Positions 27,564 through 64,000 of a DNA stretch of 64,000 bases are shown here, piece after piece. The DNA is from an uncultured Gammaproteobacteria bacterium (GTDB lineage Bacteria > Patescibacteriota > Patescibacteriia > Magasanikbacterales > GWA2-37-8). Under the pieces are notes generated by a model, which saw nothing but the letters and a program-made list of their open reading frames with translations, did not search any database and was not told the origin of the DNA. Each line of letters starts with the position of its first letter. The first letter of the stretch is position 1. The stretch spans positions 5,542-69,541 of the forward strand of contig CAZEEW010000004.1 of assembly GCA_964511375.1 (NCBI GenBank), given 5' to 3'. The position numbers and the translations under genes were made by a program.

Positions 27564-27980
27564 ATGCTTGGCAGACTAGACAAAGCAGTGATACCTGCCG
27601 GTTTAATACGCAGTGCTAAGACTTATTCTTTAGTTTTAGAGACAGACGGACTATACATTATACACACTGGTCCAGCTGGACGGCATGTACGAACTAGGGA
27701 TACTTTAAGTAATGCAGTTGCTAATATGGTCCACAATAACCAAGCCTTGAAATTAGCGGAGGGAGAGAAGCGGTTGGATTCGGTGTCATTAGTTGAACTC
27801 GTCAAAGAAAAAGGTAATACTTTTATTACTAGAGGAGAAATTAAAGGTGTAGAGGTTGGTAAAAATATTTATGAAGAAACTACCATGACGATTAATACCG
27901 AGCAGAAAAAATGGAAGTTCCATTTCTTTTTTCAAGCTAGTGAGGAGCAGGTTAGAAAATTTGCCGCTCTTTTCTTTTAG
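27564..27980 (+). CDS. hypothetical protein
   Basis: ORF with protein-like composition. No recognised motif. Confidence 0.35.
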   Translation: MLGRLDKAVIPAGLIRSAKTYSLVLETDGLYIIHTGPAGRHVRTRDTLSNAVANMVHNNQALKLAEGEKRLDSVSLVELVKEKGNTFITRGEIKGVEVGKNIYEETTMTINTEQKKWKFHFFFQASEEQVRKFAALFF

Positions 27981-28047
27981 TTGAAAGAAGTTATCCACTT
28001 TTTTTGAAGTAGGAAATAAAAATATTTTGTAAAAAGAGATTATTTTA

Positions 28048-28082
28048 TCCACAGTCTGAGAGGGCGGTGGATTTTGTTTTAT
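28048..28082 (+). terminator. terminator candidate (ATCCAC-loop-GTGGAT + TTTTGTTTT)
   Basis: Hairpin plus T-run seen in the sequence. Confidence 0.4.
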
Positions 28083-28121
28083 TTAAGCCATAATTTTCGT
28101 GCATTTTTTTGGTTCAAAGTG

Positions 28122-28150
28122 TTGACCAGTGAGTCGAAGTGGAGTAAAAT
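28122..28150 (+). promoter_or_regulatory. sigma-70-like promoter (TTGACC-17-TAAAAT) for the mraZ/dcw cluster
   Basis: Canonical spacing. Sits 19 nt upstream of mraZ. Confidence 0.5.
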
Positions 28151-28168
28151 GGAATTAGGTGGGGAAAA

Positions 28169-28618
28169 ATGGGGAAATATGTAACTATGTTCATCGGTGA
28201 ATTCACGCATAATCTGGACGAAAAAGGACGACTGGCTATCCCGGTTAAGTTTAGGCGTGACTTGACTAAAGGAGCCGTTGTAACCCGCGGCTTAGATAAT
28301 TGTCTTTTTCTTTATACTAAAGGCGAATGGGAAAAGTTGGCTGAGAAATTGGCAACTTTGCCGATTAGCCAAGCAAACAGCCGAGCCTTTGCCCGTCTTA
28401 TGCTCGCGGGAGCGATGGATGTTGATGTGGACAAACAAGGAAGAATTGTTTTACCAGAATACCTTAGACAGTTTGCTGGCTTAAATAAGAACGTTATTGT
28501 CGCTGGTTTATATAATCGGGTGGAAATATGGGATGAAGCCAAGTGGCAGAGTTACAAACAACAAACTGAAACTAACAGCAATGAGATTGCTGAAAAGATG
28601 GCTGAGCTGGGGGTGTAA
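28169..28618 (+). CDS. mraZ: transcriptional regulator MraZ
   Basis: MFIGEFTHNLDEKGRLAIPVKFR, with a second SpoVT/AbrB-like repeat. Start could instead be 28187. Confidence 0.85.
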   Translation: MGKYVTMFIGEFTHNLDEKGRLAIPVKFRRDLTKGAVVTRGLDNCLFLYTKGEWEKLAEKLATLPISQANSRAFARLMLAGAMDVDVDKQGRIVLPEYLRQFAGLNKNVIVAGLYNRVEIWDEAKWQSYKQQTETNSNEIAEKMAELGV

Positions 28619-46990: not shown

Positions 46991-47018
46991 TTAAATATTT
47001 AGGATTTTTGTGTATAAT
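46991..47018 (+). promoter_or_regulatory. promoter candidate (TTAAAT-16-TgTATAAT) implying a leaderless or near-leaderless start at 47026
   Basis: The -10 ends 7 nt before the ATG at 47026. Confidence 0.35.
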
Positions 47019-47025
47019 ATATACC

Positions 47026-49041
47026 ATGGTAGATAATAACGAGGAACAAAAACCAGTGGACTCTTTTAAAACTGATCCCAACGTCAATTTTTTTGGTTTA
47101 ACAAATTTTCGGAATCAGTATCGGAAATTTGGCATTAAACTAGATGATCGTCGCCGGCACATGTACATTGTGGGTAAAACGGGCATGGGAAAAACTACCA
47201 TGCTTGAGAACATGGTTTTAAACGATATCTATGCCGGACATGGTGTTGGGTATATTGATCCGCATGGTGATACAGCAGAGAAGATCATTGACTTTATTCC
47301 GTCTTGGCGGATGAATGACGTGGTGTACTTTAATCCGGCGGATTTAGATTATCCGATTGGTTTTAATATTTTAGAAACCATTAATGCTTCGCAAAAACAC
47401 CTTGTAGCGTCGGGTCTGATGGGTGTGTTTAAAAAGATTTGGCCAGATGTTTGGAGCTCAAGAATGGAGTATATCTTAAACAATACCATTTTAGCTTTGT
47501 TAGATTTTCCGGGTACGACTTTATTAGGCATTAATCGAATGTTGGCAGATGAAGATTACCGGCGTCGAGTAGTAAAAGCAGTTAAAGATCCGGTGGTTAA
47601 ATCTTTCTGGCAAACGGAGTTTGCATCCTATAGTGAAAAGTACCAACAAGAAGCAGTCGCACCTATCCAGAATAAAATTGGTCAGTTCTTGTCTGCTTCA
47701 GTTATACGTAACATTGTGGCTCAGGTAAAGTCCCGTATTAATATACGGGAGATAATGGATAACAAGAAAATTTTTATCATGAACTTGTCAAAAGGTAGAA
47801 TCGGTGAAGACAATTCTCGTCTTTTGGGAGGCATGCTCATCACTAAACTCCAACTATCTGCTATGGAACGTGTCGATATGCCAGAACTAGATCGCAAAGA
47901 TTTCTTCCTGTATGTTGATGAGTTTCAAAATTTTGCAACCGAAAGTTTTGCTAATATCTTGTCCGAAGCGCGAAAGTACCGTTTAGGATTGGTCTTGGCT
48001 CACCAGTACATGGAACAGTTAGATGAAAAAGTACTGGCGGCGGTTATCGGTAACGTTGGTACCATGATTACATTCCGTGTTGGTTCAACGGATGCGGAAA
48101 TACTGGCCAAGGAATTTGCACCGATTTTTGTGGAAGAGAATTTAGTAAATTTACCGAAGTTTAACGTTTATTTAAAACTCATGATTGATGGTGTAGCCTC
48201 GCGACCGTTTAGTGCTCTGGCGATGCCACCAATTAAATTGTCTACCACTGGCAGCGCTGATAAAGTCATTCGTGTTTCGAGAGAACGTTATGCTGTGACC
48301 AGAGACAAGATTGAAGACAAGATTGCACGCTGGAGTGGAATGGTTATTCTAGATGAAGAGGGAAATCCGACTACCGATGATCCGGATGAGGAATTTGATG
48401 ATGGACCAAAGAAAGAAGAAACCGTTCCAACTAAGAGCCCGCCAGTAGCTAAAAAGAACGAGTCTAAAAAAGAAGAAACGTTCAAGCCGATTGTAGTTGA
48501 GTCGGCTAAAGAAGAGAGTAGCTTACCGGTAGCGGAAGAAATATTTAACATACTAATGGCAGAAGATAAGCCAGTACAGTTGCCTAACTTAGAAAGGGCA
48601 ATGATTGATAAACCGAAAGATGATCAAGCAAAGCCACCACGGAGGATAAATAATCCTGTACAGCAACCATCTCTAACTAGTAATCCAGATATTGTTAAGA
48701 AACGTAAGAGAAAAAGAAAAAAGAAAAGTGGGGGAGGGGGCGGGCAAGGCTTTACTAATTCAGAGCCGGTTTTACTGGTAAAACCAGAAACCAAAGGTAT
48801 TTCTTTGAACGATCTTAAGCCTCTGCCTAAAAACGAAGAAAAACCACAGCATGTTACTCGAGAGGAAGATTTAAATAGTACAGCAAAACAAGAGGAAACA
48901 CTAGGATTTTTGAAGTCTAGTCAAGACAGCAAATTTGAACCGCTAAAATTGAGCGAGCAAAACGATCCAAATATTCATGATAATAGTGGTCCAAAGACCG
49001 TACCTAAGGGTAAAATTGAAGCAATCAATGATGATAAATAG
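47026..49041 (+). CDS. VirD4/TraD-like (type IV coupling-protein-type) P-loop ATPase with a ~250-aa K/E-rich disordered C-terminal tail
   Basis: Walker A VGKTGMGKTT. Walker B FFLYVDEFQNF. No N-terminal transmembrane segment. Tail carries KKRKRKRKKKSGGGGGQG. Alternative TTG start at 47008. Confidence 0.6.
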   Translation: MVDNNEEQKPVDSFKTDPNVNFFGLTNFRNQYRKFGIKLDDRRRHMYIVGKTGMGKTTMLENMVLNDIYAGHGVGYIDPHGDTAEKIIDFIPSWRMNDVVYFNPADLDYPIGFNILETINASQKHLVASGLMGVFKKIWPDVWSSRMEYILNNTILALLDFPGTTLLGINRMLADEDYRRRVVKAVKDPVVKSFWQTEFASYSEKYQQEAVAPIQNKIGQFLSASVIRNIVAQVKSRINIREIMDNKKIFIMNLSKGRIGEDNSRLLGGMLITKLQLSAMERVDMPELDRKDFFLYVDEFQNFATESFANILSEARKYRLGLVLAHQYMEQLDEKVLAAVIGNVGTMITFRVGSTDAEILAKEFAPIFVEENLVNLPKFNVYLKLMIDGVASRPFSALAMPPIKLSTTGSADKVIRVSRERYAVTRDKIEDKIARWSGMVILDEEGNPTTDDPDEEFDDGPKKEETVPTKSPPVAKKNESKKEETFKPIVVESAKEESSLPVAEEIFNILMAEDKPVQLPNLERAMIDKPKDDQAKPPRRINNPVQQPSLTSNPDIVKKRKRKRKKKSGGGGGQGFTNSEPVLLVKPETKGISLNDLKPLPKNEEKPQHVTREEDLNSTAKQEETLGFLKSSQDSKFEPLKLSEQNDPNIHDNSGPKTVPKGKIEAINDDK

Positions 49042-49053
49042 AGCCTGGGGCCA

Positions 49054-49082
49054 TTGACAAAATATGAAAAATAGGGTATAAT
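49054..49082 (+). promoter_or_regulatory. consensus sigma-70 promoter (TTGACA-17-TATAAT) with a ~140-nt leader before the zinc-ribbon gene
   Basis: Perfect hexamers and spacing read from the sequence. Confidence 0.6.
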
Positions 49083-49223
49083 GATACCTGTAAATTGGGC
49101 AACTAAAAAACGTCAAAAAGGCCTTTTCCAAAAGGATACAATTAGATGGTGTTAGTTCCCAGTCGGTCGATTAATTAAGTTTTTTCTCAAAAACCATTTT
49201 GGGAACAAAGTATAGGAAAATTT

Positions 49224-49535
49224 ATGCCTTTTGGAACTGATAGGCAAATGTATTCCGTAGACTTGTCTTGTGCTAAGTGTGGCGCTCACATCAGTGAACT
49301 CCCATTTCAGCCAAGTGGTGACAGGCCAGTGTATTGCTCTGATTGCAATCGCGCCTTCCGCCAGAGCCGTGCTCCAAGAAATGGTGGTGGTCGTACAAAC
49401 GGCCCTCGCCAGATGTTTCAGGTCAATTTGACCTGTGCAGACTGCGGAACTGCCATCAACGAGCTTCCTTTCCAACCAGATGGAAGCAAGCCAGTTTACT
49501 GCCGCACCTGCCTTATGGCAAAACGTGCTGCGTAA
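49224..49535 (+). CDS. tandem-duplicated C4 zinc-ribbon protein (two CxxC-x17-20-CxxC modules)
   Basis: Internal repeat VDLSCAKCGAHISELPFQPSGDRPVYCSDC / VNLTCADCGTAINELPFQPDGSKPVYCRTC. Confidence 0.6.
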   Translation: MPFGTDRQMYSVDLSCAKCGAHISELPFQPSGDRPVYCSDCNRAFRQSRAPRNGGGRTNGPRQMFQVNLTCADCGTAINELPFQPDGSKPVYCRTCLMAKRAA

Positions 49536-57572: not shown

Positions 57573-58028
57573 ATGTCTGAAGAACAAAATGTACAAACCG
57601 TTGCTGCTGAATCAGCTCAAAAGGATGGTAAGGCCGCTGGTAAAGCAACGGGTAAAACCAAGAAGCGTAAAGTTGTACGTCAAGTACCAAAGGGCAATGC
57701 TTATGTCCAAGCTTCCTACAATAACACCATCGTAACGGTTACTGATCCAAATGGAAATGTTTTGGGTTGGTCTTCTGCTGGTGTAAATGGTTTTAAAGGT
57801 CCTAAGAAAGCAACTCCTTATGCCGCTAGTATGGTTGTTAAAGATGTTATGAACAAAATTGGTGATGTTGGCTTGAAGGAAGTAAATGTTTTTGTAAAAG
57901 GTATTGGTGGAGGCCGTGAAAGTGCTATTCGTGCTTTACACGCTAATGGTTTAACTGTGCTGGCTATATCTGACGTTACTCCTTTGCCACACAATGGTTG
58001 CCGTCCACCAAAGAGGCGTCGCGTCTAA
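57573..58028 (+). CDS. rpsK: 30S ribosomal protein S11
   Basis: AYVQASYNNTIVTVTDPNGNVLGWSSAG. Confidence 0.93.
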   Translation: MSEEQNVQTVAAESAQKDGKAAGKATGKTKKRKVVRQVPKGNAYVQASYNNTIVTVTDPNGNVLGWSSAGVNGFKGPKKATPYAASMVVKDVMNKIGDVGLKEVNVFVKGIGGGRESAIRALHANGLTVLAISDVTPLPHNGCRPPKRRRV

Positions 58029-58051
58029 TCCTTGGATAATATTTTGAATCT

Positions 58052-58612
58052 ATGAGTACTAATCCTATTGAAACAACTAACAAGATGAAGAAACCTGCTC
58101 CAGCTGCTAAGGGTTCTGGGCAATCCAAGAATCGTAAGGTATCTGGTTATGGTAAGCAATTGGCGGAAAAACAAAAAGCCAAAGAAGTCTATGGTTTGCG
58201 CGAACGTCAGTTTGCTAACTACGTGGCTAAGGCTGCCAAGAAAACTGGTGATACCAGCAAGATTCTGTTAGCTGAACTAGAATCTCGTTTAGATAACGTG
58301 GTATTTCGTGCTGGTTTAGCAGCTACTCGAGCTGCGGCTCGTCAGATGGTCAGTCACGGCCACATTTTATTAAATGGTCGCAAATTAACTGTTCCATCTT
58401 CTGTCGTAAAAGCCGGAGATGAGATCAAGGTATCTAACCGCGCTAAGGGTCGCAAGGGTTTTGAGACCATGCCGGAAAATTTAGCCAAATTAGAAGCACC
58501 AGCTTGGTTAACTGTAAATGCCAAAGATGTGAGCGCAAAAGTATTGAATGAACCAACGGTTGACATGCCAGCTTTTGACGCTAAATTAATCATTGAGTTC
58601 TATTCTCGTTAA
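58052..58612 (+). CDS. rpsD: 30S ribosomal protein S4
   Basis: S4 RNA-binding domain LESRLDNVVFRAGLA... Confidence 0.92.
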   Translation: MSTNPIETTNKMKKPAPAAKGSGQSKNRKVSGYGKQLAEKQKAKEVYGLRERQFANYVAKAAKKTGDTSKILLAELESRLDNVVFRAGLAATRAAARQMVSHGHILLNGRKLTVPSSVVKAGDEIKVSNRAKGRKGFETMPENLAKLEAPAWLTVNAKDVSAKVLNEPTVDMPAFDAKLIIEFYSR

Positions 58613-58631
58613 TTTTAACCACATATTTAGT

Positions 58632-59450
58632 ATGGAGAACTTTTTATTACCTTCCAAGGTAGAGTTCGCTCCTCAAAAGGAGGCCAATACCGCCAGTGTT
58701 GTGATCACCCCATGTTACCATGGTTATGGTACAACTTTGGGTAATGCACTACGCCGGGTATTGCTATCTTCTTTGCCAGGTGCGGCCGTGGAGTCATTTA
58801 AGATTAAGGGTGTTAACCACGAGTTTTCGACTGTTGATGGTGTTAAAGAAGATGTGGTGGAAATGATGTTGAACTTAAAACAATTAGTGGTTAAAGTACA
58901 TTCAGATGATCCCGTTGTCTTAACTTTAAGTAAAAAAGGACCAGGTCCAGTTACGGCTGGTGACATTACTCCAAATAGTGAAGTAGATGTTATTAATAAA
59001 GATTTAGTTATTGCCAATTTGACCTCCGCTAAGTCACTAGACATGGAAATCACTGTTAGCCGCGGACGTGGTTACAAACCAGCCGAAGATAAGGATCGTC
59101 AGTCACAAGATTTAGGTACGATTGTTATTGATTCAGTGTATACTCCAGTACGTGATGTTGGCTACGTAGTTGACTTTACTCGCGTAGGAGATATTACCAA
59201 CTTTGAAAAGTTGACTTTGAATATTGAAACTAATGGTACGATTACTCCGGAAGAAGCCATGCAACAAGCAACCAAAATTTTAATGGATCACTTTACGATT
59301 ATTTCCGGTGCCGTTGCACAAGGGGGCACCAATAAGGCGGAAGTGGTGGTGGAAGAAACCGTAGCCCCGGTTGAAACCACCGAAGAGGTTGTTTCAGAAG
59401 AAGAGTCTGAAGAACCTAGGAAAGCTAAGAAAAGCAAAAAGAAAGCTTAA
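58632..59450 (+). CDS. rpoA: DNA-directed RNA polymerase alpha subunit, N-terminal-domain-only with an acidic/basic tail (no alpha-CTD)
   Basis: MENFLLPSKVEF...ITPCYHGYGTTLGNALRRVLLSS alpha-NTD motifs. 273 aa ending ...EEESEEPRKAKKSKKKA. Start re-picked at 58632. Confidence 0.85.
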   Translation: MENFLLPSKVEFAPQKEANTASVVITPCYHGYGTTLGNALRRVLLSSLPGAAVESFKIKGVNHEFSTVDGVKEDVVEMMLNLKQLVVKVHSDDPVVLTLSKKGPGPVTAGDITPNSEVDVINKDLVIANLTSAKSLDMEITVSRGRGYKPAEDKDRQSQDLGTIVIDSVYTPVRDVGYVVDFTRVGDITNFEKLTLNIETNGTITPEEAMQQATKILMDHFTIISGAVAQGGTNKAEVVVEETVAPVETTEEVVSEEESEEPRKAKKSKKKA

Positions 59451-59473
59451 CTGTAATTATTTACCATAAAGGT

Positions 59474-59827
59474 ATGCGACACCAAAAGAAAAAAGTTACC
59501 TTGGATCGAAAAGCCGCTCCTCGACGCGCCTTACTTTCTAGCTTAGTCGAAAGCCTCGTTTTATTTGAAAAAATTAAAACTACTAAGGCGAAAGCAAAAG
59601 TTACTCGTTCCTTGGTTGAAAAATTAATCACTAAAGCTAAGAAAAATACCTTAGCGGCTCGTCGAGATATTGCCAAAGATCTTCACACTGAAAACGCTGT
59701 TAAAAAGTTGATGGAAGTTCTTGGCCCACGCTATGCTGAACGCAAGGGTGGTTTCACACGCTTAACTTTGGTTTCCAATAGCCGTAAAGGTGATGGTGCT
59801 GAAGAAGCAATTGTTGAATTCGTCTAA
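59474..59827 (+). CDS. rplQ: 50S ribosomal protein L17
   Basis: MRHQKKKVTLDRKAAPRRALL. Confidence 0.92.
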   Translation: MRHQKKKVTLDRKAAPRRALLSSLVESLVLFEKIKTTKAKAKVTRSLVEKLITKAKKNTLAARRDIAKDLHTENAVKKLMEVLGPRYAERKGGFTRLTLVSNSRKGDGAEEAIVEFV

Positions 59828-59838
59828 AGAACATATAT

Positions 59839-60204
59839 TTGAACACTATGGCTATTAAAAGACACACCGTCGTATTAGATGCCGCCGGACAAGCCCCAGG
59901 CCGTCTGGCTACTCAAATTGCGACAATTTTAATGGGTAAGAACAAACCAGATTATGTTCCACATATTGACTCTGGAGATAAGGTGGAAGTAATCAATGCA
60001 AAAGACATTGTTTTTACTGGTAAAAAGCTTGACCAGAAGGTTTATCGCCATCACACCAATCATCCTGGTGGTTTAAAAGAAACCGGAGCAAAAACTTTGT
60101 TTAAAGACAAACCAGAAGAAGTGGTTCGTTTGGCGGTAATTAAAATGTTGCCAAAGAATAAACTTCGAACTGCTCGGATGAAAAGACTTAAGATTAAGAA
60201 ATAG
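59839..60204 (+). CDS. rplM: 50S ribosomal protein L13
   Basis: ...ATILMGKNKPDYVPHIDSGDKV... Start may instead be 59848. Confidence 0.9.
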   Translation: MNTMAIKRHTVVLDAAGQAPGRLATQIATILMGKNKPDYVPHIDSGDKVEVINAKDIVFTGKKLDQKVYRHHTNHPGGLKETGAKTLFKDKPEEVVRLAVIKMLPKNKLRTARMKRLKIKK

Positions 60205-60215
60205 TAATATACACT

Positions 60216-60623
60216 ATGGCTAAAATTGTTAACAAAACCGATACTAACCGCGCAGTTGGTCGCCGCAAAAGCGCTTCTGCCCGCGTTAAGATCGACAAAG
60301 GTGCCGGTAAGATTACCGTTAATGGTAAAAACTTTACTGAATATTTTCCAGGCTTTGAATTACAGGAAACTGTCTTAGCTCCTTTAAAAGCTTTAGCTAA
60401 ATTAAAGGACTATGATATCTCTGCTAAAGTGGTTGGTGGAGGTTTAAAGGGTCAAGCTCAAGCTGTGCAATTAGGTATTGCTCGCAGCTTGGTAGTTTGG
60501 AATGAGGATTTCAAGAAAACTTTAAAAACCATTGGCTTACTTACTCGTGATGCTCGCGTAAAAGAAAGAAAGAAACCGGGTTTGAAAAAAGCTCGTCGTG
60601 CACCACAGTGGAGCAAACGTTAA
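60216..60623 (+). CDS. rpsI: 30S ribosomal protein S9
   Basis: GRRKSASARVKI...RRAPQWSKR C-terminus. Confidence 0.92.
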   Translation: MAKIVNKTDTNRAVGRRKSASARVKIDKGAGKITVNGKNFTEYFPGFELQETVLAPLKALAKLKDYDISAKVVGGGLKGQAQAVQLGIARSLVVWNEDFKKTLKTIGLLTRDARVKERKKPGLKKARRAPQWSKR

Positions 60624-60650
60624 TCCGTCTTTCATTTACAACATCTATAC

Positions 60651-60680
60651 AAAGCACCTGCAAACAGGTGCTTTTTTGTA
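60651..60680 (+). terminator. rho-independent terminator after rpsI (AGCACCTG-caaa-CAGGTGCT + T6)
   Basis: Perfect 8-bp stem. Confidence 0.65.
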
Positions 60681-60741
60681 ATTGAATAATCTCCTGTGGA
60701 TAATATTATATAACGCTCAAATATACAGTGTTTATCCAGCT

Positions 60742-60770
60742 TTGACAGAGCTGTGTGCATGATATATAAT
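60742..60770 (+). promoter_or_regulatory. consensus sigma-70 promoter (TTGACA-17-TATAAT) driving a ~130-nt unit
   Basis: Perfect hexamers and spacing read from the sequence. Confidence 0.6.
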
Positions 60771-60776
60771 CTATCC

Positions 60777-60907
60777 TTAGATATCAATTGTGAAAAAGAT
60801 TTTACAACAATGAAAGGTGTTTTTCTAATAATGAGGAAACGAGTGATGTGTTTTCATTTTCATAAAAAAAGTATTTAGACCTTGGCGTTAGGCCAGGGTC
60901 TTTTTTT
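60777..60907 (+). ncRNA. candidate small transcript (promoter-to-terminator unit) containing a 22-codon ORF (60810..60878, MKGVFLIMRKRVMCFHFHKKSI) without a Shine-Dalgarno
   Basis: Bounded by the consensus promoter at 60742-60770 and a hairpin + T7 terminator at 60878-60907. No protein-coding support. Confidence 0.3.
60878..60907 (+). terminator. rho-independent terminator (GACCTTGGC-gttag-GCCAGGGTC + T7)
   Basis: 9-bp stem with one G-U pair, followed by TTTTTTT. Confidence 0.55.
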
Positions 60908-61013
60908 GACCATTTGGTATAAAGAGGTGCAAACAATTTTGTATCCAGTGGCCAACCTCTTATTCCTAGGGCCGACTTCCGGCTCGTACGGTAATAGAGG
61001 TGGGGAGGGGAAT

Positions 61014-61202
61014 ATGTGCAACATGTGCCAGAAGACTAATGGTCAGCCGGAAAACTGGCCGACCGATCCTATGGCCTTGGCTCGTAAGGGCGGTGGTGCT
61101 GCAGGGCAGCCGTGCATGCCCTACATTCCAGGCTCTCTCGACGTTGAGCCGAAGCCCCTCGTCGAAGAGGAGCCAGACAACAAGTCGGAGCCGACCAAGT
61201 GA
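61014..61202 (+). CDS. small (62-aa) Cys-containing protein encoded in a local high-GC (~58%) patch with a strong Shine-Dalgarno
   Basis: GGTGGGGAGGGGAAT immediately precedes the ATG. Peptide MCNMCQKTNGQPENWPTDPMALARKGGGAAGQPCMPYIPGSLDVEPKPLVEEEPDNKSEPTK. GC3 is enriched relative to the host background. Confidence 0.4.
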   Translation: MCNMCQKTNGQPENWPTDPMALARKGGGAAGQPCMPYIPGSLDVEPKPLVEEEPDNKSEPTK

Positions 61203-61212
61203 TCGGCAGCCT

Positions 61213-61245
61213 AAACCAGTTTTCAGGTGGTTTTCCTGGTTTTTG
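61213..61245 (+). terminator. terminator candidate (AAACCAG-loop-CTGGTTT + TTTT), with an overlapping alternative hairpin GGTGGTTTT/AAAACCACC (61227-61254)
   Basis: Two mutually exclusive stems read directly from the sequence. Confidence 0.45.
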
Positions 61246-61438
61246 AAAACCACCCTAAAGATCTATTAATAGCAGTTTTCTTCGCTAGACAAGAATGATA
61301 AAAGTGGTAAGGTAAATATGTAATTGGTGTTTGTGAACACGGCTTTGGCCGTGTCCTTTGTTTAGATAGGGAAGTTTAGAGAACAATAACTTTATTAATT
61401 AAGGGCAGAGTAGTAATCTCTGTCGTGACAATAAATAT

Positions 61439-62269
61439 ATGGCTTTAAAAATTATGCGTTCATCATCCAAGGAATTTAAACCGCGAGTAAACATGTTGGT
61501 ATATGGACATGGTGGAGTGGGTAAAACAACTTTTGCCGCTTCCGCTCCCAAACCGATCTTTGCGGATTGTGAAGGCGGCACAAATTATTTTGGCCGGCGG
61601 GGGATAGAAGTTGATGTGGCGAGAATTTTAACCTGGAAGGACATGGAAGAGTTTTATCTTATGATCAAAGACAGTGACTACGAGACTATTATTATTGATC
61701 CAGCGAATGAAGCCTTAGAGAAGTTGATTACCCACCTTAAGGAGACCGGTAATTATACTAACAAGGCCGAAGGTTTGACCCTACAGGGTTGGGGAGTGGC
61801 GAAAGATAAAATGCGTTCATTTCTAAAAGCCATGCGTGATTTAGATAAACATATTGTTATTATTGCACATGTGGAAGAAAAGCAAGATGAAGGCCAAGTA
61901 CTTAAAAAGCGTCCTAAGCTGCAAGCTAACTTATCCCAAGAATTAATCGACATGATGGATATTGTTGCTTACATGCAAGTAATTAAAACTATTGACGGGG
62001 GAGTGAAGCGAATTTTACGGGTTCAACCAGAGAGTGATGTATACGAGGCAAAAGATCGGACTGGTGTGCTCGGAACAGTTATCGAGCCGGACTTTGAGAA
62101 GATCGTTGAAGCGGTGGTGGAGAACAAACAATTTGCTTGGACAAAGGAATTAGATGTACGAACTAGAGAAAACCTTCAGGAATTTGAAAGTGGACTAGAA
62201 ATTAAGAAGTTTGGTGATGTCGAAAAACAGGAAACGAAAAAGGCGAAAGAAAAACAAAAGGCGGACTAG
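61439..62269 (+). CDS. phage-type AAA_24 family ATPase (Sak4-like recombination/annealing-associated ATPase)
   Basis: N-terminal Walker A MLVYGHGGVGKTTFA followed by KPIFADCEGG, matching the AAA_24 pattern. ~250-aa size. Lys-rich C-terminus. Start could instead be 61454. Confidence 0.65.
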   Translation: MALKIMRSSSKEFKPRVNMLVYGHGGVGKTTFAASAPKPIFADCEGGTNYFGRRGIEVDVARILTWKDMEEFYLMIKDSDYETIIIDPANEALEKLITHLKETGNYTNKAEGLTLQGWGVAKDKMRSFLKAMRDLDKHIVIIAHVEEKQDEGQVLKKRPKLQANLSQELIDMMDIVAYMQVIKTIDGGVKRILRVQPESDVYEAKDRTGVLGTVIEPDFEKIVEAVVENKQFAWTKELDVRTRENLQEFESGLEIKKFGDVEKQETKKAKEKQKAD

Positions 62270-62324
62270 TCGTCTTGTGTTATAATTGCCTTTTAAGCCA
62301 TTTTCCGGTAAAATACTTAGGATT

Positions 62325-63761
62325 ATGGCTTATACCGTTACCCAAAATACTAGCTTTTTAACTTTAGCTTCCGTATTACAAAAGATTATCTCTTTTGTAT
62401 ATTTTACGATCATCGCTCGGATTATTGGTGTAGAGAATACCGGGCAATATTTTTTCGCAATTGCTTTTACTACAATCTTTACAGTCGTGGCGGACTTTGG
62501 TTTAGGACCAGTTTTTACCCGAGAAGTAGCCCGGGCACCCGAAAAGTCAGAGAAGTATCTAAATACCGTAATTACCACTAAGATCCTGTTTGGTTTAGCC
62601 GCATACTTGTTAGTAGTTTTGTTTGCTAATCTTTTGAATTATCCAATGCTTACCAAACATTTGATCTACCTTTCCGGTATCACCATGTTTTTTGACAATC
62701 TACACGCTGGTTATTATGCTCTGTTTCGAGCCAGGAAGAACTTAGTGTACGAAGCAATTGGTTTGGTTGGTTCGCAATTCCTAACTCTGGTTATTGGCAC
62801 GGTGGCCTTGGTATTAAAATGGTCTTTAATCTGGCTCATCATTGCGTATACTATTCCGGCCTTTTTAAATTTCATATTCTCTGGTTTATCTGCCAAAAGA
62901 GTATTTAAGTTAAAATACTATTTTTCTTTGTCTAAGGATATTTTGAAATGGCTGCTGCCCATGGCATTGCCTTTTGCGATCGCTGGTCTTTTGGGTCGAT
63001 TGTACTCTTACAGCGACTCTATTCTCATGTCCAAATTTTTATCTTCTGACGCGCTCGGTTACTGGAGTGTGCCTTACAAAATTACTTTTGCTTTCCAGTT
63101 TATCCCGATTGCCTTAGCCACCAGTGTTTATCCGGTCATGAGCGGATTGCATGTCAGTGAACCGAACAAAATTGGGGAGTTATTTCAAAAGTCTTGGCGG
63201 TATCTGTTTATGATCGTTTTTCCTTTGTCGCTGGGGGTGATCACCTTGGCGGAACCAATTATTTTGCATTTATATAAACCGACATTCGCTCCTTCCATTC
63301 CGGTTCTACAGATTCTTATGGTAAGCTTAATTTTTGGTTATCTAGGATTTATTACTACTGCTTTAATTAACGCAACAAATCATCAGAAGGTGCAAACCAG
63401 TTTAGTTGCCGTTGCTTTAGTAGTTAATTTATCCTTAAATTTTTTCTTACTGCCGCGGCACGGCATTCAAGGCGCGGCCTTGGCGGCATTGGGTAGTAAT
63501 ATCACCTTATGTCTTTTAGGTTATTACTTTTCTAGTCGTTATGTGAAGTTAAATCACGGCCTGATTACGAGTTATTTATTGAGTAGCTTATTCGCCGCAC
63601 TAATCATGGCTGTGGTAGTTTGGTATCTTTCAACAACAGTTCATTACCTTTTAATCATTCCCATTGGTGCCTTAGTTTACATTATAATGTTATTCCTCGT
63701 TAAAGGTGTAACTATGGAAATGGTAAGAGAAGCTAAAAGAAAAATATTTAAAACTACCTAA
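62325..63761 (+). CDS. Wzx-type polysaccharide/oligosaccharide flippase (MOP superfamily)
   Basis: Twelve to fourteen transmembrane helices (LQKIISFVYFTIIARIIGVENTGQYF...). Start re-picked at the ATG at 62325, after TATAAT at 62281-62286. Confidence 0.75.
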   Translation: MAYTVTQNTSFLTLASVLQKIISFVYFTIIARIIGVENTGQYFFAIAFTTIFTVVADFGLGPVFTREVARAPEKSEKYLNTVITTKILFGLAAYLLVVLFANLLNYPMLTKHLIYLSGITMFFDNLHAGYYALFRARKNLVYEAIGLVGSQFLTLVIGTVALVLKWSLIWLIIAYTIPAFLNFIFSGLSAKRVFKLKYYFSLSKDILKWLLPMALPFAIAGLLGRLYSYSDSILMSKFLSSDALGYWSVPYKITFAFQFIPIALATSVYPVMSGLHVSEPNKIGELFQKSWRYLFMIVFPLSLGVITLAEPIILHLYKPTFAPSIPVLQILMVSLIFGYLGFITTALINATNHQKVQTSLVAVALVVNLSLNFFLLPRHGIQGAALAALGSNITLCLLGYYFSSRYVKLNHGLITSYLLSSLFAALIMAVVVWYLSTTVHYLLIIPIGALVYIIMLFLVKGVTMEMVREAKRKIFKTT

Positions 63762-63762
63762 T

Positions 63763-64000
63763 ATGTCTACGGTTATTGTTACCAAACATTTTCCACCCGA
63801 AGTAAGTAGTAAAAGTTTCTTTTTACGAAATTTAGCTACTCATTTAACGGGAGATAATATAATTTTAGCACCTGAAGTAAAAAATAAAACAGGATCCATG
63901 GTGGATGAGAAAAACGTAAAGCGTATTAGTTTTTCCGGATTAGTATTGCCAAGTTCGTATAAAATATATTCCGAACTTAAGAAGACTCTGAAAGGTATGC
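63763..64000 (+). CDS. glycosyltransferase (GT4-like N-terminus), 3'-truncated at window edge
   Basis: MSTVIVTKHFPPEV resembles a GT4 N-terminal start. ORF runs off the window. Confidence 0.45.
   Translation, partial: MSTVIVTKHFPPEVSSKSFFLRNLATHLTGDNIILAPEVKNKTGSMVDEKNVKRISFSGLVLPSSYKIYSELKKTLKGM

Follow-up and report, generated by a model that had tools for sequence, protein, structure and literature searches.

How did a gene for a phage-type ATPase come to stand between the last gene of a ribosomal-protein operon and a flippase gene on a bacterial chromosome? The question is posed by contig CAZEEW010000004.1, of which a stretch of 64,000 nucleotides (nt), here called the window, was analysed; all positions are window coordinates, and the guanine-plus-cytosine (GC) content of the whole window is 40.4%. 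Within it, rpsI, encoding ribosomal protein S9, closes an rpoA-rplQ-rplM-rpsI cluster and anchors the site on its left. The right anchor is the gene of a MOP-family flippase, and the ATPase gene lies between the two (Table 1). The initial annotation, made from the letters alone, had read the ~1.6 kb before wzx as insertion-like, with a mini-transcript, a small-peptide gene and the ATPase gene following a strong rpsI terminator, and had proposed either a degraded prophage or mobile-element remnant or a small defence or moron island. Each of these parts was recovered at its stated position in our analysis, which supports the view that the insertion is a decayed integrative element carrying a Sak4-family gene, at a site at the rpsI 3´ end that is known from other bacteria. 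The defence island did not hold up, nothing in PADLOC rising above threshold.

That the region is an insertion follows from comparison with relatives. By S9, the closest relatives are Patescibacteria, mostly Candidatus Magasanikbacteria (66-80% identity), the nearest being locus L004 (DATDYA010000024; S9 80%, RpoA 94%). The genome behind the window is accordingly Candidatus Magasanikbacteria-like. In what follows, L-numbers denote fetched related loci (235 in total) and P-numbers denote ATPase proteins. Loci were gathered around S9 in species-representative genomes and around the flippase in metagenomes, and 76 of them have both rpsI and the flippase gene, oriented alike. Between the two lie at most 200 bp in 41 of the 76, 201-500 bp in six, 501-1000 bp in 14 and more than 1000 bp in 15. 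All short-gap loci share one layout, in which the rpsI stop codon is followed by a terminator, a GGTAAAAT-type -10 element and the flippase ATG. Many relatives thus have rpsI directly before the flippase gene, and not one of the related loci carries the window ATPase between them. The gene order of the window is clearly not conserved, although the initial annotation had named such conservation as grounds against an acquired arrangement. Among relatives whose sequence covers the whole junction, L091 is the closest, with a flippase 85% identical in amino acids (aa). In blastn, window 60509-60628 corresponds to L091 1-120 and window 62280-62500 to L091 169-390, so that L091 carries 48 bp in place of window 60629-62279 (about 1.65 kb). 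Homology to this empty site returns ~10 nt past the ATPase stop codon (62267-62269), at the native flippase promoter region; the left limit of the additional DNA falls between 60626 and 60681 and the right limit at 62270-62280. The segment from about 60681 to 62279 is therefore an insertion relative to the ancestral junction. An independently assembled Logan contig (L003, 2,927 bp), which derives from SRR6488411, is 100% identical to window 59619-62545 and spans both junctions, which shows that the arrangement is not an assembly chimera of the window.

The junction is variable well beyond this genome. Adjacency of rpsI and a MOP-family flippase gene, together with the GGTAAAAT -10 element, is seen in many Patescibacteria lineages (the 76 loci, within L005-L170), and insertions of more than 500 bp occupy it in about 38% of these loci. 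The larger gaps contain varied genes, among them those for QueA, a NUDIX protein, DUF218, a KGG stress protein, an SDH-type protease and FemAB-like and ArfB-like proteins. The end of the rpsI operon before the flippase gene is in this sense a recurrent place of gene gain across Patescibacteria. ARAGORN found no tRNA or tmRNA in the whole window, and the rpsI-flippase site is consequently not an att site of the tRNA type.

The assignment of the ATPase to AAA_24, made in the initial annotation, was substantiated by Pfam (PF13479, E 1.5e-36, 126.5 bits against a cutoff of 27, over profile positions 3-195 of 195) and by PHROG_124, ‘Sak4-like ssDNA annealing protein’ (E 1.3e-50); the match to TIGR01618 phage_P_loop of NCBIfam, at 53.1 bits, stays below the curated cutoff of 138.75. 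The Walker A motif reads GHGGVGKT (G23-T30) and the Walker B motif TIIID (T83-D87), and K29 and D87 are invariant across an alignment of 42 sequences (A2). An AlphaFold model built on this alignment has a predicted local distance difference test score (pLDDT) of 91.6. Its best match among solved structures by Foldseek is Sak4 (8rc5_A; E 4e-9, template modelling score 0.77 on the target); RAD51 and its paralogs, RadA and RecA rank next. A sequence search of the PDB with the ATPase gave no match, and Sak4 was reached through the fold search. The modelled fold thus presents a RecA-core-only protein of the Sak4 kind that lacks the flanking domains of RecA and ends in a K/E-rich helix. The Sak4 family carries out ATP-dependent annealing of single-stranded DNA stimulated by the cognate single-stranded DNA-binding protein (SSB), as described for HK620 Sak4 (PMC5928155). 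By homology, the window ATPase would bind ATP and anneal complementary single strands in the same manner.

The gene is intact, being full-length, with both Walker motifs and a match over the whole length of the family. The Logan gene call starts at Met19 (258 aa, P0001). The 18 residues before it are conserved in a homolog of 76% identity (L001), and the true start is for this reason probably 61439. Neither a strong promoter nor a Shine-Dalgarno (SD) sequence was found directly upstream of this position, and folding revealed no terminator from the end of the ATPase open reading frame (ORF) to the flippase gene. Transcription through the ATPase, if any, would therefore run on into the flippase gene.

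Homologs place the ATPase among phages. In tblastn it matches 447 records of cultured phages at about 25-32% identity. A scan of viral contigs with the window ATPase as single query gave one locus only, and the contexts of the homologs were taken from the contigs that encode them. Those at 45-67% identity are located on phage or prophage contigs. P0005 (67%, L084) has terminase, ParB and 7-deazaguanine genes around it, P0004 (65%, L002) lies on a contig with small phage-like ORFs, and P0006 (56%, L086/L087) follows a tyrosine integrase located ~1.2 kb upstream. A PDDEXK nuclease is encoded directly downstream of P0007 (51%, L089/L090), with SSB, RusA and Phage_rep_O farther downstream, and likewise directly downstream of P0010 (50%, L236), where a terminase is present, and of P0023 (45%, L237). 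The window ATPase is accordingly of phage ancestry, within the Sak4 family of proteins reduced to the RecA core. On the phage contigs of the closest homologs, a perfect DnaA box is located ~70-90 nt upstream of the ATPase coding sequence (L084:7923-7931, L085:951-959 and L002:10059-10067).

A second line of evidence comes from a sister species, represented by L091, L092, L004 and L235, the last of these a 92.6-kb contig from ENA that is 99.95% identical to L004; its samples are Ga0209541, Ga0209542 and ERZ4903072. Starting with the last 23 nt of rpsI, L091 and L092 are 100% identical (on the right side, from CACCAC), and L004/L235 are identical to L091 on the left through the rpsI stop codon and 2 nt beyond it (to GTTAATC) and divergent thereafter. 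The only segment common to L091, L004/L235 and L092 is a core of 25 nt, CACCACAGTGGAGCAAACGTTAATC (alignment A1). This is the pattern expected if L091 represents attB, L004/L235 attL and L092 attR, and it suggests such an assignment. The same 25 nt are present in the window, where rpsI matches L091 without a difference over its last 32 nt and the 120-nt segment 60509-60628 is 85.8% identical overall. Past the core, L004/L235 continue with a recoded rpsI end, a terminator, two small ORFs, a 367-aa AAA_24 ATPase (E 1.7e-18) and a 69-aa ORF, followed by a Lin1244_N replication protein and the contig end. BLASTP could not align the 367-aa ATPase to that of the window. Its relatives were found in 63 viral contigs of IMG/VR, 61 of them at 54-70% identity and the other two at 43%. 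Right after rpsI, two species of one genus thus have different phage-type AAA_24 genes, and for the sister species the alignments show site-specific junctions at the rpsI 3´ end. An integrase is missing from what is seen of the sister-species element because both contigs end inside it.

Several other observations concern the same site. A second rpsI end (QWSKR-stop) lies 8-9 nt past the rpsI stop codon in L004:6394-6439 (L235:9363-9408) and in L005:4677-4727. It is written in synonymous codons (CAG TGG TCG AAG AGG TAG in L004/L235), including serine AGC against TCG or TCC, and is followed by a native-looking terminator in L004 and L005. This recoded end has the look of an rpsI 3´ end that was displaced or captured when elements integrated. 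On its right arm, L092:1-359, the sister-species element consists of unrelated DNA with a helix-turn-helix-like ORF of 62 aa. This arm contains two near-identical units, each with a DnaA-box-like 9-mer (TTATCCACA or ATATCCACA) 7 nt upstream of a promoter of the type TTGACA-17-(AATAAT/TACAAT). All four sister-species assemblies (L091, L092, L004 and L235), which are independent of each other, have a contig end either at or within the rpsI-flippase junction or in the element. A mixture of occupied and empty sites in the sampled populations would be expected to give such breaks.

Taken together, the segment from about 60681 to 62279 is, with a probability of roughly three in four, what decay has left of one or more phage-derived integrative elements that inserted between rpsI and the flippase gene. 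Site-specific recombination would have brought a temperate phage or phage-like element into the chromosome at the rpsI 3´ end or beside it, after which deletions would have removed the integrase, the partner nuclease and the SSB, as well as everything rightward to within ~10 nt of the ATPase stop codon. Three units would remain: the ATPase, a small moron-like ORF whose composition is foreign, and a short transcript with a strong promoter.

Several findings weigh against this explanation. No integrase-like ORF was found in 60625-62280, and tblastn with the L086 integrase gave nothing in the window. The initial annotation had suggested a search for flanking direct repeats or att-like sequences. 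Over 60400-62500 this search returned chance-level repeats of 10-15 nt, none of them flanking the insertion; the rpsI 3´ core has a single copy in the window and occurs at both junctions in the sister species. Apart from the ATPase, no structural, replication or lysis genes of phages were found in the insertion. With integrase, att repeats and structural phage genes all missing from the window, ‘remnant’ is the right word. Moreover, the insertion begins ~55 nt downstream of the core, past the native-looking terminator T1 of the ribosomal-protein operon, and integration at the core itself is thus not demonstrated for the window genome. T1, whose hairpin is as strong as the initial annotation had supposed (-15.4 kcal/mol, z -4.7), aligns better to the post-core terminator of L004 (score 47; shuffles 17.8 +/- 3.5) than to the native terminator of L091 (30), and is similar, too, to the native terminator region of L009; it may have been supplied by the element or be native. 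In the sister species, L004/L235 and L092 come from different assemblies and are candidate ends of one element, and an exact search for the 25-nt core in the viral contigs of IMG/VR gave no match, and hence no free attP candidate. Many insertions at the junction carry ordinary cellular genes, which indicates that the site is variable in general and not only through phages. Finally, the three units may have arrived separately; a common origin of all three is not shown, the composition of the small ORF being very unlike that of the ATPase.

The explanation that survives best besides a decayed element is that the ATPase is a domesticated host gene, selected as a lone factor in recombination or repair or in interference with phages. 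It is compatible with phage origin, the gene having been kept after prophage decay or after transfer of a single gene, and we regard it as possible, if unlikely. The intact ORF with all its motifs speaks for it, as does the comparison with the 76% homolog, in which non-synonymous divergence (dN) is 0.18 and synonymous divergence (dS) is saturated, although over most of the divergence purifying selection could have acted while the gene was still in phages. The homolog (P0002, L001) likewise stands alone, at another chromosomal location, flanked by genes for an M23 peptidase and an FtsQ-like protein on a cellular contig, and has promoter-like and terminator-like sites of its own; these two lone copies are the only ones known, however, and they are not syntenic. 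The deletion endpoint close to the ATPase stop codon gives the impression that deletion was tolerated no farther than the ORF. GC at third codon positions (GC3) is 0.39 in the ATPase and 0.31-0.40 in the host, a match that is uninformative for domestication since phages usually share the GC content of their hosts. The lack of a strong promoter or SD sequence directly upstream also counts against domestication, as does the absence, beside the ATPase, of the partner nuclease and SSB of its phage relatives. A cellular role is nevertheless hinted at by the second lone copy and the deletion endpoint at the stop codon, which are suggestive. A broader proposal is more speculative still. In it, selection keeps lone Sak4-like ATPases, such as the window and L001 copies at their different sites, as single genes in Patescibacteria chromosomes after loss of the nuclease and SSB partners. 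They would act as minimal annealing or repair factors, or would interfere with infecting phages that rely on recombination of the Sak4 type, and the rpsI 3´ end would be an entry port at which arriving elements time and again overwrite its last codons with a copy of their own.

Upstream of the ATPase lies a GC-rich block, with 54-62% GC at about 60950-61200, that contains an ORF of 62 codons. The strong SD sequence and high GC content reported for this small-peptide gene were both verified. GC at its three codon positions is 0.60, 0.48 and 0.71, a pattern missing from the other long frames of the block; the GC3 of 0.71 compares with 0.31-0.40 in the host, and gene calling in L003 picked out the ORF as well. 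Among 5.8 billion proteins, a word-indexed search recovered nothing but the ORF itself. tblastn against phages gave nothing, and the fetched loci held no homolog apart from the identical L003. An exhaustive phmmer search of 1.84 billion representatives yielded just weak, repeat-summed hits to MBG_2 (YGX), the resemblance being confined to a Y.PG.L...P.PL motif of ~24 residues (61086-61160, residues 25-49) that corresponds to the C-terminal part of the repeats. Pfam gave the ORF no family at E <=0.1, and MBG_2 is on that account a weak lead and not homology. The ORF could be a fragment of a giant-surface-protein gene from a donor of higher GC, or the match could be due to chance. Its GC content is so sharply unlike that of the ATPase (GC3 0.39) that the two probably have different sources, as would be the case for a moron. 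At the DNA level, 60625-61438 matched, among the phage records and the 235 loci, only the identical L003 and, weakly, the terminator region of L009. Two mutually exclusive hairpins can form in 61212-61262, after the small ORF. One is short and terminator-like (61223-61239, followed by TTTTT), and the other has a 10-bp stem, GGTGGTTTTC / GAAAACCACC, with the TTTTT run in its loop.

GC-rich islands in AT-rich genomes are often RNA genes, and the block (about 60905-61265) might accordingly be a structured non-coding RNA. Its 54-62% GC in a genome of 40% would fit such an RNA, folding is better than in shuffled sequence on both strands (z -3.4 and -3.6), and the 62-codon ORF lacks a protein homolog. 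Against this, Rfam 15 gave no match at E <=1 over 58000-64000 and none at gathering thresholds in 12 related loci, no tRNA or tmRNA is present, and no homologous sequence was found from which covariation could be assessed. The plus-strand frame has codon positions of the coding type (GC3 > GC1 > GC2) and GGAGG 5 nt before its ATG. A non-coding RNA is therefore less likely than a peptide gene, and improbable overall.

A small defence island against phages, or a module of the toxin-antitoxin type, would suit a variable hot spot with small ORFs under a strong promoter and an ATPase related to phage Sak4-type recombinases, which according to PMC11846896 are sensed or targeted by defence systems and satellites. 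Such a reading of the region is nevertheless very improbable: PADLOC gives the ATPase only a sub-threshold mad8 match (E 0.0033, no stretch passing) and finds nothing for the small ORF or the neighbours in L004, no nuclease, TIR, SIR2, toxin or other effector domain was found, and the small peptides lack, by their sequence, the transmembrane segment typical of type I toxins.

The remaining unit of the insertion is the mini-transcript from a consensus promoter to a terminator, and both signals proved to be as described in the initial annotation. Perfect TTGACA-17-TATAAT promoters occur twice in the 64 kb, compared with none in 100 shuffles, and in the insertion TTATCCAGC stands directly before the promoter. 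The predicted transcript holds an ORF of 22 codons (60810-60878) and, in frame with it, one of 10 codons (60846-60878). A GAGGAAA motif resembling an SD sequence goes with the shorter one, and the shared stop codon overlaps the first stem bases of the terminator T2. The transcript has no Rfam match (E <=1) and no homolog in the phage records or the fetched loci. Inspection of the leader by eye revealed no antiterminator for T2, and a riboswitch or attenuator is accordingly not supported. The perfect DnaA-box 9-mer at the left edge of the insertion, one of two in the window, is not beyond chance on its own, and its significance is uncertain. Boxes with at most one mismatch number 30 in the whole window (18 +/- 4 expected), and a cluster of them occupies 27658-28434, around the intergenic region upstream of mraZ (28169-28618), with a perfect box at 28045 and one-mismatch boxes at 27658, 27991 and 28426.

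Table 1. Features of the rpsI-flippase region in window coordinates, from left to right.
Feature	Position	Strand	Evidence or remark
rpoA	58632-59450		ribosomal-protein cluster member
rplQ	59474-59827		ribosomal-protein cluster member
rplM	59848-60204		ribosomal-protein cluster member
rpsI (ribosomal protein S9)	60216-60623	+	Pfam Ribosomal_S9, E 9.8e-45; synteny with 80 genome loci
25-nt segment CACCACAGTGGAGCAAACGTTAATC (last 23 nt of rpsI + 2 nt)	60601-60625	+	identical to sister-species core (A1)
T1, intrinsic terminator of the ribosomal-protein operon	60651-60680	+	hairpin 60651-60674 + T-run
Lineage-specific insertion, about 1.6 kb	60681-62279	+	blastn against empty site L091; gap statistics
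Perfect DnaA-box 9-mer TTATCCACA, left edge of insertion	60695-60703	-	2 in window, 0.7 expected
Perfect consensus sigma-70-type promoter TTGACA-17-TATAAT	60742-60770	+	12/12 matches
Predicted mini-transcript, ~130 nt, AT-rich	60777-60908	+	promoter to terminator T2
T2 terminator	60877-60901 + T7	+	-18.2 kcal/mol, z -5.5
Orphan 62-codon ORF, 60% GC	61014-61202	+	GGAGG at 61004-61008, 5 nt before ATG
Hairpin region after small ORF	61221-61259	+	-13.7 kcal/mol, z -1.9
GC-rich hairpin upstream of ATPase, weak terminator-like, T-poor tail	61337-61354	+	-12.1 kcal/mol, z -2.9
Lone Sak4-like RecA-core ATPase (AAA_24), 276 aa	61439-62269	+	Pfam, PHROG, predicted fold
Native flippase promoter region	62286-62314	+	GGTAAAAT -10 element conserved upstream in relatives
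MOP-family flippase (wzx/MurJ-like), right anchor	62325-63761	+	Pfam Polysacc_synt E 8e-33, MurJ E 1.6e-11

The sole other perfect TTGACA-17-TATAAT of the window, at 49054-49082, is found directly 3´ of a gene for a TrwB/VirD4-like type IV coupling protein (47008-49041, E 4.7e-11) and is followed by a gene for a treble-clef zinc-finger protein (49224-49535). The stretch 47008-49535 may be another mobile locus or one related to DNA transfer.

The sister-species junctions document integration of the lysogeny type in Candidatus Magasanikbacteria, with a defined core of 25 nt at the rpsI 3´ end; to our knowledge, little has been described of the integration sites of this group. Integrative elements of streptococci use the same target. 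In addition, the window and L001 provide two examples of a phage recombinase that survives alone in a very small genome. Current concepts are unchanged by these findings, which amount to a useful annotation and a modest lead.

The locus combines features of several known systems. The window ATPase resembles members of the Sak4 family (HK620 HkaL and the Sak4 proteins of PA73 and 80alpha) in consisting of a RecA core only, of ~220 residues with Walker A and B motifs, and its best structural match is itself a Sak4 (PDB 8rc5). It is only about 30% identical to the Sak4 proteins of cultured phages and has the additional K/E-rich C-terminal helix, and it is known here from sequence and model. Whereas the phage relatives are encoded in recombination and replication modules beside a nuclease and an SSB, the window gene lies by itself in a cellular chromosome, with neither an SSB nor a nuclease nor another phage gene next to it. 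The 62-codon ORF is reminiscent of a prophage moron in its strong SD sequence, the terminator-like hairpins on both sides, the perfect promoter upstream and a GC content of 60% compared with about 40% in its neighbours. It differs in that no intact prophage surrounds it, the strong terminator T2 separates it from the promoter and it has no homolog.

The recoded rpsI ends have a counterpart in E. coli, where e14 and phage 21 integrate in the 3´ end of icd and supply a replacement 3´ end, leaving a displaced icd copy with synonymous differences. L004 and L005 likewise have a second, synonymously recoded rpsI 3´ end, but the two ends are adjacent instead of being separated by a whole prophage, and the window has one copy. 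The closest parallel in target is found in streptococci, where the rpsI 3´ end is an integration site of integrative conjugative and integrative mobilizable elements that is used by three families of tyrosine integrases and shows tandem accretion and decayed elements (PMC5357655). The present case differs in phylum (Patescibacteria), in its phage-like cargo (a Sak4-type ATPase and Lin1244_N) in place of relaxase and coupling-protein modules, and in that the window insertion follows the terminator and does not lie inside the core. The two cases agree in the target gene and the end of it that is used, in the 25-nt core that the sister species presents in the empty site and at both junctions, and in the presence of different elements at the same site in relatives, among them remnants without an integrase.

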